From: Isurus oxyrinchus
Lineage: Eukaryota
Length of the DNA: 64,000 nt
Assembly (NCBI GenBank): GCA_026770705.1
Contig: JANJGN010000005.1
Location: 184,016,001 to 184,080,000, forward strand
Direction of reading: 5' to 3'
Shown: positions 7,444 through 61,905 of the stretch, in pieces
Layout: every line of letters begins with the position of its first letter
How positions within the stretch are numbered: the first letter of the stretch is position 1
Translations under genes and position numbers: made by a program
Notes under the pieces: generated by a model
Told to the model about the DNA's origin: nothing
Databases searched by the model: none
The model's input: only the letters and a program-made list of their open reading frames with translations

Positions 7444-8380
7444 TAATTTTGAAAAATTAGTCTGCGATGCTGGCAGAATTCAGTTGGCTTTTTTCTCAAG
7501 GCTGATATTCAGCAATATTGCTGCACTGAAATGCAAGATGAATAATCATTGCCAGATGATATTTACTCAAGTATTGCAAATTGAATTATTCTATACAGAG
7601 GTTAAATATGGAACTAGTTCTTGAAACCTGAATTGCAAGTATAAAGGAAGTAGATATTGAAGTTCTAGACAGTCCACGACTTCTCCAAGCTTAAAATTGT
7701 GCTTCAAATCTCCAACTGCACTAGCTGATTTTTTGCCTTTTTTAAAAATAATCTGATCTTGTAATCTCACTATTTCTATTTTTCCCAAGACTACTGTCAT
7801 CAGTGTAAATGGAGACCAAAGAAACAAGTTTATTACATTCCTGATAATCTGTTTAAGAAGCAATGTACTAGAATTTACATCAGTTTTAGTCTCCATATTT
7901 AAGAAAGGACATACTTGCATTAGAGGTGGTACAGCGAAGGTTCACTAGGTTTGTTCCTGGGATGAGAGGGTTGTCCAATGATGAGAGCTGAGCAAATTGG
8001 GCCTATGCTCTCCAGAGTTTAGAAGGATGTGTGGTCATCTCACTGAAACCTACAAGATTCTGAAGGGGTTTGACAAGGTAGACACAGAAGTTATTTCCCT
8101 GGCTGGGGAATCTAAAACACCGGGGGGAACAATCTCAGGATCGGGGGCCATCTTTTAGGTTTGAGATGAGGAGAAACTTCTTCACACAAAGGATTGTGAA
8201 ACTTTGGAATTCTCTACTCCAGAGGGTTGTGAATGTTCCATTGTTGAATATATTGAGTAAATATCATCTGACAATGATTATTCATTTTGCATTTCAGTGG
8301 CAGCAATGCTGCTGAATATTCATCTTAAGAAAAAAGCCAACTGAATTCTGCTAACATCGTAGACTAATTTTTCAAAATTA
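7444..8380. repeat. Local inverted duplication; arms 7444-7570 and 8253-8380
   Basis: taattttgaaaaattagtctgcgatg...gatgatatttactcaa is the diverged reverse complement of ttgagtaaatatcatc...agactaatttttcaaaatta. Confidence 0.9.
7890..8252 (+). mobile_element. CR1 LINE ORF2 C-terminal fragment
   Basis: ctccatatttaagaaaggacatacttgcattagagg...aaggttcactagg...gagatgaggagaaacttcttcacaca. Confidence 0.85.
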
Positions 8381-8960
8381 AGGATGTTATGCTTGAGTTA
8401 TACAGGGGATTGGTGAGACCACATCTCAAATAGTGTGCGCAGTTTTGATCTACTTATTTAAGGAAGGATGTAAACGCATTAGAGGCGGTTCAGGGGAGGT
8501 TTACTAGATTGATAACTGGAATGAGTGGGCTGTCTTATGAGGAAAGGTTAGACAGACTGGGCTTGTTTCCACTGGAGTTTAGAAGAGTGAGGGGTAACTT
8601 GGTTGAAGTATATAAGTTCCTGAACGGTATTGAGAAGGCAGGTGTGGAAAGGATGTTTCCTCTTGTGAATGAGTCCAGAACTAGGGAGCACAGTTTTAAA
8701 ATTAGGGGTTGGCCTTTTAGCACAGAGATGAGAAGACTTTGGAACAATCTGCCTCAGAAGGTGATGCCGGCGGGGGTCAGTAAATATTTTCGAGGCAGAG
8801 GTAGACAGATTCTTTTTAGGCAAGGGAATCAAAGGTTATCGGAGGTAGATGGGAATGTGGAATTCGAAACACAAACTGGTCAGACATGGTCTTAATGAAT
8901 GGCAGAACAGTATCAAGGGGCTGAATGGCCTACTTCTGCTCTTATTTTGTAAGTTCGTAT
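8381..8960 (+). mobile_element. CR1 LINE 3' end
   Basis: ORF 8509..8895 (GLSYEERLDRLGLFPLEFRRVRGNLVEVYK) is typical CR1 ORF2 tail; 3' UTR ggctgaatggcctacttctgctc. Confidence 0.9.
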
Positions 8961-9109
8961 GAAAGACTTTTTCTCTCAGGGAATCATTGGATATGGGGAG
9001 AAATGGGGGCCCAAGACCTAATAATATCCCAGAAAATCAGCTTTAGTAAGATGAAATACTAAGGAAAATGTTTACATGTGCAAAATTATTGTAGTTGTAT
9101 GATGAATTC

Positions 9110-9580
9110 AACAAGAGACTTACCAGAATGGTTCCAGGGTTCAGGCTTTTAATTACAAGACTAAGTTGGAAAGCCTGGAGTTGTTCTCCTTGGAGCAAAG
9201 GAGATTGATAGGAGATTTGATAGGGGTGAGCAAAATTATGAGGGGCTTAGATAAGGTAGATATGGAAAAACTCTTCCCATTAGCTGATGATACAAGGATT
9301 AGAGCGCACAGATTTAAGATTTTGGCCAAGAGATGAAGGGGGGGGGAATGAGGAAGAACTGTTTTACGTAGTGAGCAATAATGACCTGGAACACTCTGCC
9401 CTCGAGGGTGGTGGATGCAGAAATAATCAATGATTTCAAAAGGAAATTGGATGGACACTTGAAGGAAATAAACTTGGAGGGTCATTGGGGCCAAGAGAAG
9501 TGTGGGACTTACTGGATTGCTCCATGGCGAGCAGGCATGGACATGATAGGCTGAATGGCCTCCTTCTGTGCCGTAAATCC
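9110..9580 (+). mobile_element. CR1 LINE 3' end
   Basis: ttgttctccttggagcaaaggagattgataggagatttgata...; 3' UTR ggctgaatggcctccttctgtgccgtaa. Confidence 0.85.
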
Positions 9581-19932: not shown

Positions 19933-20009
19933 TTTATTTTTGGGATTGGAAGTATTCATTACACTGCGAGTTTCTTTTCCAGTATAAATGACCACCCCTA
20001 TCACAGTAC
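19933..20009 (-). CDS. ATP9B: ATP9B internal coding exon (77 nt, phase 1-0): (G)[25 protein letters not shown]
   Basis: ttttgcag|GTACTG...AATAAA|gtaagt; lies within ORF 19789..20028; [10 protein letters not shown] is a P4-ATPase motif and the residues are ATP9B-type. Confidence 0.96.
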
Positions 20010-24494: not shown

Positions 24495-24570
24495 CAGAAG
24501 CTACTACTGTGCTGGCCCAAAGTGTGTTTTCTGTACTCAGACTTTCATGGATGAAAGGATCACTATCTTC
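24495..24570 (-). CDS. ATP9B: ATP9B internal coding exon (76 nt, phase 0-1): [25 protein letters not shown](G)
   Basis: ttgcag|GAAGAT...TCTG|gtgagt; continues the frame of the 81-nt exon; P4-ATPase actuator-domain ESLSxENTLWA motif. Confidence 0.95.
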
Positions 24571-37210: not shown

Positions 37211-37291
37211 CCGTGTGAAGGTCCCTTCAAAACTATGAATGTCCATTTGTGGCTTCTGAGCATAAACATGAGCATTGATTGTAAAAAGATC
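37211..37291 (-). CDS. ATP9B: ATP9B internal coding exon (81 nt, phase 0-0): [27 protein letters not shown]
   Basis: Minus strand reads tttacag|GATCTT...ACACGG|gtgagt. The peptide matches remembered ATP9[28 protein letters not shown]; ATP9A has AEEPNIDIHNFVGTF here. Not in the ORF track. Confidence 0.95.
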
Positions 37292-39000: not shown

Positions 39001-39364
39001 GAATTCTGTGGAAGTGAGAATGGATAGATAAATACTCGAGATTTTCCTGGATTACCCTTGATTGTAAAGAATTTTGCCTGAGACTAAACAGATAAAGTAG
39101 AATGTTCCAAGCCTATGCAAGAAACAGGTTTTTCTTTCTCCTTTCCTTGTGTTCATAAACAATTAATATTGCCTATAGCTAAGAACATGCACATGCTTTT
39201 TAAACAAGTAAATGTCTTCGTAAAGTTAGCATAACAGTTTGATTATATTTCAGTTTAAATATTTAGGTCCCATAATAGTTCACTGGATAAATGTACCACA
39301 GTGTGGTAGTGAAGCATACAGACCAGGAATATGCCAGAAACCAAAGAACAGCAGGAAAGCTAAG

Positions 39365-40925
39365 TCAAAAACAGAAAATGCTGGAAACCCTCAGCAGGTC
39401 AGTCAGCATCTGCAGAGAAAAGGGATAAGTTAACGTTTCAGACACAGACCCTTGGTCAGAACTGGAAAATATTACAGATGCGCAACATTCGAAAAGTAAT
39501 AGGACACAGAAGTGGAACAGAAGAAGAGCAGCATAAAGTGATTAGGTAGAAAACAGGTGATGGAGACATCAGGAATGAAATAAAGAAATTGAAGACATTT
39601 ACGAGACACAAAAAGTGTGCAAATTGCTAAAGGTGGTGGGGTGGGATGATTCAAAAGGGGATTTAAAATGTTGGCTAAGCAAGAACCTGCCATACTGCAA
39701 GCACAATCCATTCCTCCGCTATAACCTATCCTACACTGCCAGCTCTTCCTGGCAAACAAAGTGGAGTCATTAGTTAAGGTCTGAAGTTATTGTCAATATT
39801 AAGGCCAGTAGCTGCAAAGTGTCCAATAGAAAAAGGTGTTGTTCCTCAAGATTCATTTGAACAGTGTAGGTCAAAGGCAGAAAGGTTGGAGTGGGAATGA
39901 GACCAGGAAATTGGAGTGGGAATGAGACCAGGAAATTGGAGTGGCAAGCAACAAGGGACCGAGTAAACTTAAGCTGTGTAGTAAACAGCATACTAGCTTA
40001 GAGGAAGTAAACATAAATAGCCATCTTGCACAGAAAAAGTGTGCCTGGTGCCCTGATGGTGGTGCAAGAGGTGGTGAGCTAGTATATTGCTTGCACGTAA
40101 AGTGTCAGAGGAATGGGAGGAGGTAGGGCAGTTTAAGAGTGAACCAAGGTATTGTAGAGGATTTTATTTAGCAGAAGGGAAGAAAGAGAGAAGGTGAAAG
40201 TGGGTGGGATCATGTAAGGTAACAGATCTAGCACATGAAAGTAGCAGCCAGTGGGGTGGAAACCAAGGACAAAGGAAAGTCTTTCACAGTTGCAAATGAA
40301 TGGGTGATTAGGTGTTCCATAAAAGCTCAACCCAGACTCAATTCCTACAGTCTATTTCTAAAAGTTCTGTATCTTCCTATTGGGTATTTGTCAGCCCTCT
40401 GGCCTCAATACTGGTTTTCATAACTTTCAACCTTAACCACAGATCCCAATTTCTCTGCCAGAAAGCACTGGTAGTGTGGAATGAGTGCATCAATGTTTGC
40501 GGTGGGAGAAAGAAGTGGAAAGATAAAGGGGGACAGGCGGTTCCAACAGAACAGCCTGACACCAAACAACTGCGTGTTGGCAGTGGGACCTGTCCCCTTG
40601 ATGTCAATCTGCTTTTTTCTTACTGCTTTGGGTGTTCACACAAACTTAGTGTCTCATAATCATATTTAATTTCTCTCATTATGCCTCCTATTACTCCAGT
40701 TATTATCAGTTCCGCCATTTAACCCTTTTCAACATAGGGACTTTACAGCTCATTGCACGTACCTAGTTGTGTGCTTCCCTATCTTCTTCCCTTTATTTTG
40801 TTCCATCTTACATGTTTTCATCTGTAATATATTCCAGTTCTGACAAAGTGTCAACATTAGTTATGTTACTGTGTCTGCTCTCTTCAGAGGTGCTGACTGT
40901 TTCCAGCATCTTCCATTTTTGATTC
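39365..40925 (-). mobile_element. Penelope-like retroelement remnant with inverted partial terminal repeat
   Basis: Minus ORF 39770..39991 has LVACHSN and LEEQHLFLLDTLQ, resembling the GIY-YIG endonuclease C-terminus (PVACHFN, KLEEQHLIFRLGTLQP); ORF 40133..40330 has ERLSFVLGFHP. Terminal repeat on minus at 39365-39470 and an inverted copy at about 40830-40925. Confidence 0.75.
39886..39944. repeat. 25-bp tandem duplication (about 2.4 copies)
   Basis: ttggagtgggaatgagaccaggaaa twice, then ttggagtgg. Confidence 0.95.
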
Positions 40926-42054: not shown

Positions 42055-45000
42055 TAAGATCATCAAAAATAGGAGTAGGTCTTTCAGCCCATCAAGCCTG
42101 CTTCACCATTCAATAAGATCATGGGCTGATCTGATTGTGGCCTTAATTCCACTTTCCTGCATACCACCACCACCGCTTGCCCACACCACCTCCCACACCC
42201 CACGACTGATAACCCTGAATTCCATAGATCAAAAAACTGTCCAGCTCAGCTTTAAATATATTCATGGCCCAGTCTCCACAGCTCTCTTTGGAAGAGAATT
42301 CCAAAGACCAACCTCAAAGAAGAAACTCCTCTCATCTCAGTATTAAACTGTGCCCCCTAGTTCCAGATTTCCCTATGACCCTAAGGCCATAATATGCAGG
42401 AGCAGAAGTAGGCCTTCCGCCCTGAGTCTTCTTCACCATTCAGTTAGATCATGGCTGATCTGATAATTCTCAATTCCACTTTCCTGCCTTTTCCCCATAA
42501 CCCTCGATTCCCTTACTGATTAAAAATCTGTCTATCTTAGCCTTGAATAAACTTAACGACCCAGCCTCTACAGTAAAGAATTCCACAGATTGACTACCTT
42601 GTGAGAGAAGAAATCTTCATCTCTTAAATGGGTGACCTCTTACTCTGAGATTATGCCCTGATCCTAGGCTCTCCCATAAGGGGAAACAACCTCTCAACAT
42701 CTACCCTGTCAAGTCCCCTAAGAATAGTGTTTTTCAATAAGGTCCCCTCTCATTCTTCTGAACTCCAATCAGTACAGGCCCAACCTACTCAAACTCTCCT
42801 CATAAGAAAATCACCCATACTCAGGATCAACCTAGTGAAGCTTCTCTGAACTGCCTCCAATGCCAGTGTATCTTTCCTTACATAAGGGGACCAAAACTGC
42901 TCATGGTATTCTAGGTGTGGTATAACAAGTGCCCTGTATAGTTTTAGCAAGGCTTCCCTATTTTTAAACTGCATTCTCTTTGAAGTAAAGGCCAACATTC
43001 CATTTGCCTTTCCTATTACCTCAACCTGTTTACTAGCTTTTTGTGATTCATGCCCGAGGACACCCAAATCCCTCTGTGCTGCAGCTTTCTGAAGTCTTTC
43101 TCCATTTAAATAATATTCAGCTCCTCTAATCTTCCTGCCAAAGTACATAACCTCATTTCCCACGTTATATTCCATCTGCCAATATCTTGCCCACTCACTT
43201 AACTTGTCTCTATCCCTCTGTAGGCACTCAATGTGAAACTCATTACTTGCCTTCCCACCTATTTTTGTGTCAGCCACAAACTTGGCAATTTCATATTCAC
43301 TTCCCTCATTCAAGTCATTAATTTATACTGTAAATAATTGTGGCCCCATCATTATGAGGGGAAACATCCTTTCAGCACCTACGCTGTCACAACCCGAGTC
43401 CTACATGAGTCAATATCACCTCTCATTCTAAATTCAATAGGGCCAAGCTGCTCAACATTTCCTCATAAGGCAACCCCTTCATCCCAGGAATCAGCATAGT
43501 GAATGTTCTCTGATCAGATCATAAATAGTTGAGGCCAAGCACTGATCCCTACAGCACTCCACTCATCACAGCTCACCAACTTGAAAATGATCCATTTATC
43601 CCGACTCTGTTTCCTGTGAGTTAATCAATTCTCGATCCACGCTAAAATATTACTCCCAAATCCATGAGCACTTAACTTGTGCGGTAATCCTTAATGTGGC
43701 ACCTTATCAAATGCTTTTTAGAAATCCAAATACACTACATCTACTGGTTCCCCTTTATTCACCATGTGCGTAACATCCTCAAAGAATTCTAATAAATTGG
43801 TCAAACACGGTTTTCCTTTCACAAAACCATGCTGACTTTGCCTGATTGCATTATGATTTGCTAAATGTCCTGCTACTATCTCCTTAGTATGGATTCTAGC
43901 ATTTTCCTGATGACCGGTATTAGGCTTACTGCTTTATAGTTTCCTGATTTGTCTCCTTCCTTTCTTGAACAGAGGTGTTACATTTGTGGTTTCCCAACCA
44001 CTGGGACTTTTCCCAGAATGTTGGGAATTTTAGATGATTACAACCAATGCATCCACTACCTCTACAGTCACTTCTTTCCCTAGAATGCAGGGCATCAGGT
44101 CCAGGGACATGTCACTCTTCAGTCCCATTAGTTTCCTTAGTACTTATACTTTAGTGAACGTGATTGTGTTAAGTTCCTCCTTCCCTTTTACCTCCAGTTT
44201 TTCTATTTTTCTTGGTATTTTTCTGTGAAGATGGATACAAAATACTTGCTGAAAGTCATAGCCATTTCCTTGTTTCCCATTATTAATTCACCAGTCTCAT
44301 CCTCTAAGGGATCAACACTCACTTTAGCTACTCTTTTCCTTTTTATACACTCGTAGTTTTTACTGCCTGTCTTACTTATCCTGCTAACTTTCTCTCATCC
44401 TGCAATTTCTCCTTCTATTATTTTTTAGGCATCCTTTGCTGGTTTCTAAAATTTTCCCAATATTCTTGCCTAACACTAACTGTTACATCATTGTACAACT
44501 TTTCTTTTAATTTTATACCATCCTTAACTTCCTTAGCTAGCCTCGGATGGTGCATATTTCTCAAAGTCTTTCTTTCTCAATGGAATATACCTTTGTTGAG
44601 AGTTATGAAATATCTCCTTAAATATCTATTGCTACTGTCATTTTAACCTATTTTTCTATTCCACTTCAGTCAACTCTGTCTACGTATTCTTGGAATTGCT
44701 TTTATTTAAGCTAAAGACACTAGTTTCAGACCTACATTTCTCACTCTCAATGTGACAGAATTTTACATTCAGTTTATGATTGCTCTTATCAAGAGGATCC
44801 TTTACTATAAAGTCATTAATTAATCCTCTTACATATTACCTGGTCAAAAATAGCCCATTCCCTGGTTGGTTGCAGAATGTATTATTCTGAGAAATTATCC
44901 CAAGTACACTCTATGAACTCATCTTTCAAGCTACCTTTGCCAATCTGAATTATTCAATCTATATGAAGATTAAAATCTCTCACAATTATTGCAATATATT

Positions 45001-46822: not shown

Positions 46823-47677
46823 TGGTTCCAAATGTTTCTCAATTCACTGCTGTTAATTAAGGCAACAGTTATACACATTTGGACAAAAACAGAATAAGTG
46901 CCTGCAAAAGTAGCAGCATAGCTAGTCATATTTCAATCTAACCCCAGAATTCAATAGTACAATAACTCCTTGAGGACGCTACTTAGGTTTGCTGGACTCC
47001 AGTCTAACTCCAAATTAATACATTCTAATTAGCTCATTGGACTTTTTGGGCATTTCATAAAAATTAAACATTTTTTTAATATCACAAGGTTTATATTTTG
47101 ACCTGTGCTTACAATCATTAAGAATTTAGAATAAATTCTCAACACCCTGGGAGATGTATAGGAAATATGCTGCCTGCTTCTGGGAGTTTTTCTAGATTTA
47201 TGTTGAAGCCTAGTTGAGCTAAAAAGGTCTACTGTAAAGTACCTAGTACAATGAATGCGCTCTGTTGTGGCCCACTGTGATGAGTAAGTTGCTTTGATAA
47301 AGATAGACCTGAGGATTCCTATATCATTTGATGCACAAAGTTTGATGCAAACTAAGGTGGTAATACAAATCTAAATATTATGTAGAGTCCTGGTACTGTA
47401 TCCCATCAGTGCTGAACCTCAGGTAGCTTCTGTGGGGTTCTCAAATCCTACATGGAAGGCATGCAACAGTGAGGTACACAGCTGCTTGCCACCTTTTGCA
47501 AAGTATTTCTTTACTATCATGTGATTTGAGACTTACGAGCCTAGCATAAATCAAAATCTTTTTTACTTCTTTGGGTGCAGACTCACAAACTTATCACCAT
47601 GCTTCAGAGGCTTCAAAACAAGCCGCTTGAGAAATTTGCATAAGTAGTTTCCATTTGCCCAATATGGATGTATACAT

Positions 47678-49010
47678 TGTCATGAAGAGCTGATTACAGC
47701 CACAAATTACTTATGGGCATATTGAACTTTTTAAAGAAAGACATGTGTGTTTTCAAAGAAATACAAGCAAGGGCACTGAGCAAAAGATGGCTGATAATGT
47801 AAAGTGACCACTTTCTGGAAAATCCCTAAGTTGGATTATACACTGATAGACCTGCCCTGAGAGAATATGGAATGTCACACCTGAAAAGGTGTCATGGCCA
47901 TCTTCAGGCAAAGCCACTAAAAAGGGAGATAGGAAAGATGCAAAAGACTGAACTTTAATCTCCTGTGGTTGCAGAGATGAAAGACTAATTATGTCTCAGC
48001 AGTCATCTAAAATCCATCTCTTGCTGATTGATATCTCAATGTGTAAAATGGTCAGAGATCAAAGAAAACAGACTCTGGGCACAAGACCTGTTTTTTTTCC
48101 CCCTTATGGGAATACACAGGGTAGATGGGTTAAAAAGCTAGCTGCAGAGCAGTGCAGTGTGTGCTGGTGTGCTGTGCATATGACAGCAAGAAGACCAACT
48201 ACTCATTCCTGCATAAAAACAAAAAAACTGCAGATGCTGGAAATCCAAAACAAAAACAGAATTACCTGGAAAAACTCAGCAGGTCCGGCAGCATCGGCGG
48301 AGAAGAAAAGAGTTGACGTTTCGAGTCCTCATGACCCTGTCGAAGGGTCATGAGGACTCGAAACGTCAACTCTTTTCTTCTCCGCTGATGCTGCCGGACC
48401 TGCTGAGTTTTTCCAGGTAATTCTGTTTTTGTTTTACTCATTCCTGCAGCTGGAGGCAAAGTCTTTCTCTCTCTTTTGCTGGATGCAAAGTTCGCGGAAG
48501 CCACAATCAAAAAGGTAATAGGACAGCTTCTTCAGTTATCCTTCAAAGCTGTGTCGCCAAACCCACTGTGAAGCTGCCAAGGTCAGCTCTACCCAAATCA
48601 CCCAACTTGACGGCCACAACATTTCACCATCTAGGCCTCACAGGCAAACCAAAGACTGATTTGTGTATCTTTTCAAACTGTTATTTGGACTCTTAACTTC
48701 TCATTTCTGATCTGTGTGTGTTGTGTTTTCATTTTTTTTCTCGGGTGTTTAGCAACTAATAAACTTACTCTTGGACTCAAGAAAGCCTGGTTAAATTGGC
48801 TCCTTCTAAAAAAATAGATATCTTTGGGCTGGGAAAAGGTATCCATGGGGAATGGATCCCTTTTAAATTAACCTTGTTGCGATCAACTGACAGGGTTGCA
48901 TAAAGAAGGGGAACATGCTCATTCCTCCTCACCTGGGAGCATAACAAAATTGGGGACCCGCTCGGGAAGTTAACAAACTGGGGGACCTTGCCACGGGACT
49001 GGTCGTAACA
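47678..49010 (+). mobile_element. Solo LTR (TG...CA) with 4-bp TSD
   Basis: Starts tgtcatga, ends tcgtaaca; flanked by acat (47674-47677) and acgt (49011-49014), differing by one CpG-type transition; aataaa at about 48758. Confidence 0.7.
48214..48435. mobile_element. Young Penelope-like terminal-repeat insertion forming a 92-bp-arm palindrome
   Basis: Arms 48247-48338 and 48344-48435 are reverse complements with one mismatch; TSD actcattcctgca at 48201-48213 and 48436-48448; same family as 39365-39470 and 61803-61905. Confidence 0.9.
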
Positions 49011-50379
49011 ACGTACTCCCCAGAGGAGCACAATCCACTCAACTGAGTTCGGAGAGTTTAGAAGCACCTTAGCAAATGTAAGGTCTAAGGTGCCCAAAGT
49101 GTTCAGAGGGCTATTTTCACATATTATTGGATTCCAGGCTAAAAGAAATAGAACCCTGAAGATTGCTCACTTGAAAGTACTTATCTTTTAAAAAAAAATG
49201 TTCTACTAAAGCAGCAGCTTCTGCACTTCACTGGTCAAGTTCACACACTGTCATTGCCCCAATAAAACTCCTCTAAATTTTGGGAGATGTTAGGAAGTAG
49301 AAAGCATGTTTTGACATCCAGATTTCCAATCAGAGGATATTTTAATATTTTTGAAAACTTGTCACATGTTGTCCCCTACTTAACTCAGGGAGCAATAGTG
49401 ACAGTATGGAGGTGTGAAACACAGCAGTCAGGGGAATGGGTGGAGTCTTTTCACTTAATCTTTACTGGGATAGTTTGAATCTAGATATAAAGCAACTGCT
49501 GGCCTAAAAGAGAGTTCAGGTGCACTTGAAAGCTGTAACATCAACTGTGTTCTGAGCTAAAGGGGTTTGATCATGAAAGTTTTCAATATTTATGCCAGGT
49601 GCCAGGGCTAGAATGGAATCAAGCATCTGAATTTTTAAGATTCACTGAATACACACAAAATTGGTTAATCATCTTTTCATTCATCTATTTTTGGTGCAAA
49701 TGGCAAATGTAATTTTTATACTTGAGTTTACTATACATCAAACACATTACCCTTTATGGGTTCTCCAAAATCACTGCTAGTTGCAATACAATCAGATTCA
49801 TTATACGTCATCTCACTCTTCTGATAAAAACCAGGTTGTATTATTGAGCAATAATAAGTAATTGATCTACGTATAGTTCTGGAATCAAGTCAGTTTACAC
49901 AGAAAAAAACAAGTTCAACATAGTTGCTTCAAGATCTACCCAAATTCTCAAAAAATTGTCTTTTGTTAATCAATATATCTGAACTTTAATTAATTAATTA
50001 ATACATTTTTAATCTGTACGTTTGGCACAACTGGAATTTCCTTTCACCAAGAAAAGGCATAGGAATATAACATCACAATGCATGGTTAACTTTCCCACAA
50101 CTTTTATATCCTTAGTATCAAGGATCAGGGGTGACCTTTAGTGAAATATGTAGTCGGGTAGAAAAAAAAGGATGGGTTTTATTTTTCAATTCAAGGCGTT
50201 AACAGGTTCATTTAAGAAGAAAATAGATATCTGTGGGCAGTCACTTCAAGAAGTGAAGTGCTTTAATATTTGTAGAGGAATAGTATAAAAGAATTTGTTC
50301 AAATGACTTTAGGAAATAGAAGCAAAACTGTAGCTGATTTTTTTCATGCCTTATTAAATTCAAAGATAACATTATTCAA

Positions 50380-61802: not shown

Positions 61803-61905
61803 AACAAAAACAGAAAATACTGGAAAAACTGAATAGGTCTAGCAGCATCTGTGGAGAAAGAAAAAGAGTTAACATTTCTGGTCTGTATGACTCTTCTTCA
61901 GAGCT
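61803..61905 (-). mobile_element. Penelope-like terminal-repeat fragment
   Basis: aaaaacagaaaatactggaaaaactgaataggtctagcagcatctgtggag...gagttaacatttc; same family as the 48.2-kb arms. Confidence 0.8.

Follow-up and report, generated by a model that had tools for sequence, protein, structure and literature searches.

The origin of the inverted repeats and tails of Penelope-like elements (PLEs) is described as unresolved in the PLE literature (PMC11167929, PMC8557442, PMC3846280). The inverted-copy layout itself is already published for endonuclease-bearing (EN+) PLEs. The Pen2/Pen2a elements of Adineta vaga (PMC3846280; scheme in the Fig. 2 legend of PMC8557442) show the same head-to-head inverted 5´-truncated copy as the Isurus insertion analyzed here, together with the same 30-40-nt tail on one end only, a target-site duplication (TSD), and TATA/Inr-like motifs in the pLTR. 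The Poseidon element PAc of Anolis carolinensis cuts and extends both strands, and a dimer is predicted (Frangieh et al. 2024, PMC11167929); two internal reverse transcriptase (RT) start sites bound its tail, and its ribozyme is dispensable in vitro (PMC11167929). A minimal type-I hammerhead motif has been described (PMC4209133), opposite-strand hammerhead pairs 100-700 bp apart were noted in 2014, and in the non-LTR retrozyme complete type-I hammerheads, one per unit, recur along a head-to-tail tandem array (bioRxiv 10.64898/2026.07.22.740005).

The Isurus insertion lies at 48201..48448 of a stretch of 64,000 nt, here called the window. The best explanation of this locus as a whole, to which we assign a probability of roughly two in three, is a truncated head-to-head insertion of a Neptune-type PLE via two-end priming.

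Results

A palindromic insertion inside a solo LTR

An earlier note, made from the letters of the window, had described a 92-bp near-perfect palindrome with a 5-nt loop, a single mismatch and a 13-14 bp TSD. Arms, loop and mismatch were all confirmed, and the insert (48214-48434, 221 nt) includes a 33-nt tail, extending the left arm, which the note had omitted:

48200-48213: left copy of the TSD, 14 nt, single copy in LTR paralogs
48214-48246, minus strand: PLE "tail", on one side only, 33 nt, element positions ~-33 to 0 (0 = tail end)
48247-48338, minus strand: left arm of the palindrome, 92 nt, PLE sense on minus, 5´ end at element position -124
48337-48343, plus strand: junction, read from the sequence as a 2-nt microhomology (48337-48338) and the 5-nt loop
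48344-48435, plus strand: right arm of the palindrome, 92 nt, PLE sense on plus, tail-less end at ~-33
48435-48448: right copy of the TSD, 14 nt, junction covered by a short-read contig

The sole difference between the arms (48296/48386) is one CpG transition; it had been read as a G-U pair on the plus strand, but the gene lies on the minus strand and the mismatch in the pre-mRNA is A·C. The tail likewise departs from the family majority by one CpG transition. In a shuffle test, the RNA fold of the palindrome (-196.5 kcal/mol, z -28.8) was equaled by none of 200 shuffles, and the pre-mRNA strand also folds as a hairpin (-194 kcal/mol). Read in that orientation, the insert has three splice-like motifs, one of them donor-like and two acceptor-like (minus strand, window 48265 and 48337), enclosed in the hairpin. 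CpGs are retained in a CpG-poor region, as the note had said, the observed/expected ratio being 0.90 for the insert, 0.23 for the whole window, and 0.08 and 0.27 for the flanks.

The target 14-mer is present once in paralogs of the host LTR, where left and right alignments overlap by ~14 nt (for example L044, L046, L056 and L063), indicating that the 14-nt repeat is a true TSD, exact over its length. At the right junction, a short-read contig of single-copy depth from run X1, possibly the assembly's own sample, reads across 48426-48542 without a difference; no listed read or contig record covers the whole palindrome. Flank contigs of related organism B showed 4 differences in 218 nt and 7 in 270 nt, and no junction was bridged among the contigs listed for it. 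A single insertion that became palindromic later, because a longer inverted insertion lost its middle or because the arms were homogenised, or a fold-back artefact of assembly, would be in keeping with the long inverted insertions that exist in the PLE family and with a palindrome that no listed read or contig spans. We regard such an origin as very improbable, however, in view of the exact TSD, the empty site in paralogs, the one-sided tail, the one CpG transition between arms and the contig over the right junction; deletions, moreover, would not cluster at one coordinate.

The surroundings had been described as a solo LTR in an ATP9B intron, and comprise the following features:

47678-48213, plus strand: left part of the host solo LTR, TG start, ~80% to paralogs
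48449-49010, plus strand: right part of the host solo LTR, CA end, from paralog alignment
37211-37291, minus strand: ATP9-type P4-ATPase exon ending the host intron, by exon match
19933-20009 and 24495-24570, minus strand: ATP9-type flippase exons, by exon matches

The assignment as a solo LTR held up, with TG...CA ends, a short TSD and dispersed paralogs without internal genes. Without the insert, the LTR is ~1.1 kb long and shows ~81% identity to paralogs; its TSD copies (47674-47677 and 49011-49014) are alike in three of four bases. The repeat spans 47678-49010 in 29 paralogs, and at least three of four TSD bases were alike in 10 of 27, some ends being misaligned. The right flank gave 4,062 first-look candidates in the genome, and the 40 that were scored had 80-84% identity. 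Just after the LTR end, paralog L047 has what we take to be a primer-binding-site-like stretch, and the LTR 3´ end (window 48941-49010) contains repeated similar G-rich words. PLE hairpins were seen in six of the 29 paralog loci (L041, L042, L048, L057, L059 and L064; 3.5 kb each), two of them inside the LTR and at other positions; hairpin density at these loci is possibly above the genome average. As for the gene, the flanking minus-strand exons place the insertion in an ATP9-type intron; ATP9B, rather than ATP9A, is a candidate assignment. The next ATP9-type exon upstream lies ~4 kb past the window end and the host intron measures ~31 kb; the exons neighbouring it match PDB 9vdk ATPase IIA (ATP9A), with many differences.

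An abundant PLE family, probably Neptune-type

Copies were counted by exact patterns. The arm 31-mer occurred 78,036 times in the genome, a 19-mer 128,994 times and the arm-tail junction 50,835 times, and reversed controls gave 0. Elsewhere in the genome the arm adjoins an RT and GIY-YIG ORF, a neighbourhood on which the earlier note had staked its reading as a Penelope-like terminal repeat plus its inversion, and that reading stands. The source was seen in a tandem array (L031, G000:C1:454000-470400) with at least three head-to-tail units of 3.35 kb, in which an intact ORF of 926 aa (L031:5210-7990) matches RVT_1 (E 7e-8) and GIY-YIG (E 9e-4, below the curated Pfam cut-off) and carries DKG, YIDD, CX4CxxC and CCHH motifs. 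A comparison of this ORF with PDB gave no match. The CX4CxxC linker between RT and EN lies at residues 792-801; since a CX2-5CxxC linker in this place marks Neptune/Nematis and is absent in Penelope/Poseidon (PMC8557442), the family belongs with Neptune/Nematis, and the label Poseidon was ruled out. The family thus has the hallmarks of EN+ PLEs, namely an RT with a C-terminal GIY-YIG bearing CCHH, tandem units forming pLTRs, and an inverted truncated copy with one tail and a TSD. We conclude, with little residual doubt, that the insertion at 48201..48448 is a non-coding, 5´-truncated, head-to-head copy of an autonomous PLE, probably of the Neptune type.

Adjacent 3.35-kb units showed 0 differences in 2,100 nt and arms diverge by 1.6% on average from the family majority, and on this divergence the PLE family is judged young. 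Among 85 scored insertions, 26 had no arm mismatch and 26 had one (median 1). The description of the palindrome as very young therefore applies to the family, and to the insertion relative to its host LTR; within the family its age is typical, one mismatch being the median. Two diagnostic changes, seen in five 100%-identical insertions, define a younger subfamily to which the L031 array belongs.

Other repeats were seen in the window: two relics of related PLE ends, both older and with a single arm (39351-39439 and 61803-61896, 75-77% alike), two further inverted repeat pairs (7444-7570/8253-8380, 128 nt, 90%; 63263-63337/63504-63578, 75 nt, 88%), and decayed LINE-like RT fragments in several frames (7881-9336 and 42400-43933), which we take to be CR1-type by resemblance.

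A hammerhead-like motif at the junction

In the right arm, the 5-nt loop belongs to the core heptamer of a hammerhead-like motif, within a remnant detected by motif scan and family comparison:

48337-48367, plus strand: minimal type-I hammerhead remnant with a non-canonical CUGUCGA core, helix II and GAAACGUC; 5´ strand of helix I lost

The core consensus of minimal type-I hammerheads is CUGANGA. Here the core has U at position 6, and the inverted arm has taken the place of the 5´ strand of helix I; in Rfam, no hammerhead family was among 12 matches, and only generic hairpin matches below the gathering score were returned. The CUGUCGA core was found in 83 of 97 arms, and U at core position 6 (element position -128) in at least 93 of 97, family-wide, and the expanded PLE family may have spread without a working ribozyme. 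The older relic at 61803-61896 has a canonical hammerhead core. With helix I cut and the core on the strand opposite the ATP9-type gene, the motif in the insert is probably inactive. Hammerhead cleavage was rejected as the cause of the truncation point, as none of 30 tail-selected arms starts at the predicted cut, -100.

Rules across two-armed insertions

The annotation covered 95 two-armed insertions. Contig C1 supplied 49 of them from its first 4.4 Mb, 3 lie near the window and 43 were picked by junction, with a duplicate of the window's own site removed; the samples were chosen by exact motifs and draw mainly on the initial 4.4 Mb of one contig. Exactly one arm is tailed in 92 of the 95, including 43 of the 43 chosen by junction only. 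The rule was broken in 3 of 52, and for 69 arms of the contig sample the partner was out of view or absent. The rule-breakers (G000:C1 near 618050, 132000 and 3919200) comprise one tail-less insertion and two double-tailed ones, beside tandem units or without a TSD.

A TSD was found in 77 of the 95 insertions, measuring 13-16 nt in 69 of these 77 (mode 14). The target profile of 32 sites with a 14-nt TSD correlated at 0.72 with its own reverse complement, and at no more than 0.19 when shifted by 1-3 nt. The resulting consensus, AAC|T-N12-A|GTT, is mirror-symmetric and is matched in seven of eight bases at 48201..48448. The half-site match score was 2.19 versus 1.07 of 4, with a motif derived from the same data, so that only the symmetry test counts as evidence. 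Among LTR paralogs, 11 of 23 read by eye have all eight target bases, yet all 29 lack an insertion at that position.

Non-CpG variants common to both arms of an insertion numbered 25, against a mean of 1.05 and a maximum of 7 in 1000 sets of shuffled pairs, although the 25 are not independent, one linked pair being common to five insertions. Seven such variants were found in 18 long-spacer insertions, and at 48201..48448 both arms carry a rare A>G found in 6 arms of the 95 insertions. Private arm differences amounted to 93 non-CpG and 60 CpG; arms that gather private differences argue against homogenisation and leave arm-to-arm conversion weak. Arm lengths correlated (Spearman 0.69; 48 of 52 insertions scored), and the tail-less arm reached further 5´ in 27 cases versus 11, with 10 equal (p 0.014; the same 48 of 52). 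The lengths of two-armed insertions lay between ~160 nt and 4.4 kb; among 48 simple ones, 30 measured at most 300 nt. About half of the junctions bear 1-15 extra bases instead of an overlap.

Arm starts are clustered. Of 30 tail-selected arms, 13 have their start between -111 and -138, whereas the interval from -139 to -184 has none. This pile-up is ~30 nt downstream of a TATA-like box at -167; several arms of the simple-insertion sample end at -140 to -165. Genome counts along the PLE end fell from 128,994 (~-45) through 120,459 (~-115) and 74,613 (~-170) to 45,974 (~-280), a drop that may partly reflect subfamilies caught by different patterns.

Diverse junctions and one-sided tails

Tight hairpins at the palindrome motif occurred at 2,394 sites (control 10), and the locus at 48201..48448 is thus ordinary, one of at least 2,394. 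Hairpin stumps probably number tens of thousands genome-wide; three were present in the 224 kb read. Any dsRNA or cruciform role, as suggested in the earlier note, would concern one hairpin among thousands. The earlier note had proposed a recently active non-autonomous hairpin family, in which the 221-nt palindromic unit would be transcribed or copied as such and mobilised in trans. Three observations could be cited in its favour: 84 sites have the exact 31-nt junction in common, in Adineta, pLTRs are able to act on cargo in cis (PMC3846280), and non-autonomous PLE derivatives exist (PMC8557442; bioRxiv 10.64898/2026.07.22.740005). A self-copying unit would hold one layout, however, and the layouts vary. 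Dozens of other junctions were present among the first 50 hairpins listed, lengths are graded from 160 nt to 4.4 kb, and no TATA-like box (element position -167) is present in the stump. Even among the first 30 of the 84 same-junction sites, each with one tailed arm, the tail lies on the left in 14 and on the right in 16, which indicates that same-junction hairpins arose independently; tail-less ends and variants differ as well. The proposal that hairpins move as a unit is therefore largely refuted for the 30 sites examined, and we consider it highly improbable overall.

Instead, the arms probably arose by priming from two nicked target ends on the same element RNA, with subsequent joining of two short cDNAs. 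Shared variants might otherwise stem from a pair of RNAs with one source locus, or from arm-to-arm conversion. They are explained equally well, as are the correlated arm lengths, if a single cDNA or antisense RNA strand folds onto itself at a short palindrome and serves as its own template, an endonuclease later removing one tail. Short self-complementary words do occur near junctions, self-priming on an antisense template was proposed by Arkhipova et al. 2013 (PMC3846280), and the tail has been ascribed to EN-mediated resolution (PMC8557442). In a fold-back of target-primed cDNA, however, the loop must sit in the tailed arm, which is not so in 14 of 30 same-junction sites, 48201..48448 among them; fold-back of a tailed cDNA cannot make the tailed arm the shorter one, as it is in 27 of 38 insertions; and about half of the junctions have 1-15 extra bases rather than an overlap. 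Self-priming of an antisense strand does not predict a pile-up just after a sense TATA-like box. We thus consider a fold-back origin unlikely, although less so than a mobile hairpin unit or a later-formed palindrome.

Discussion

Priming by both target ends on one RNA would proceed as follows. The RT-endonuclease, probably as a dimer, would nick both strands 14 nt apart, whereupon one target end would begin its cDNA at position 0, where the tail ends, and the other at a point 33 nt inside, resembling the pair of internal start sites in PAc. Both cDNAs would run toward the RNA 5´ end near -137, ~30 nt after the TATA-like box, a start position suggested by the TATA-like motif and the junction pile-up; the dimer is taken over by analogy from PAc, a Poseidon element. 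At 48201..48448, the cDNA ends would have been trimmed to -124 and -131, annealed over 2 nt and filled in. The product, with neither an ORF nor a TATA-like box, would be a dead end. Whether stumps are the default product of element mRNA, with a dimer, symmetric nicks 14 nt apart, starts always at 0 and -33, one RNA and run-off at the transcription start, strikes us as an evenly balanced question. If they are, the genome would hold tens of thousands of natural read-outs settling PLE inverted repeats and one-sided tails, and the load of near-perfect intronic dsRNA hairpins (90-100 bp) that the host would have to tolerate would be large.

The weight of the finding lies in a family-level test of PLE integration, not in ATP9B. 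A young PLE family yields testable rules (one tail per insertion, a symmetric stagger of 14 nt, a template common to both arms, and a predicted RNA start close to the junction edge), and the intact 926-aa ORF is a resource for in vitro work. Among the titles found in the open literature, none concerned this PLE family or a two-primer model for PLEs.

In LINE-1 twin priming, reportedly set out by Ostertag and Kazazian in 2001, the second target strand is said to prime a second cDNA, with a microhomology join and an inversion within the TSD. The two L1 parts reportedly copy different stretches of RNA, whereas the Isurus arms copy the same stretch from starts 33 nt apart. A non-LTR retrozyme was ruled out, as the insert is head-to-head with one partial motif. 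Published pLTR hammerhead motifs have the same core, helix II and palindromic GAAACGUC as the Isurus PLE; they differ in that the Isurus core reads CUGUCGA, and in this copy the motif sits inside the hairpin with helix I cut.

PAc and the Isurus PLE are alike in having two ends ~33 nt apart that bound the tail and lie about equally far from hammerhead helix II, and in showing no sign of ribozyme cleavage setting the ends. In contrast to PAc, the Isurus family has a CX4CxxC linker, a 14-nt-spaced dyad target rather than ATT, and a non-canonical core. Compared with what is reported for Adineta, whose layout it otherwise shares, the Isurus insert lacks any ORF body, its TSD is ~14 nt rather than 8-10 nt, and its copies probably number tens of thousands instead of a handful.
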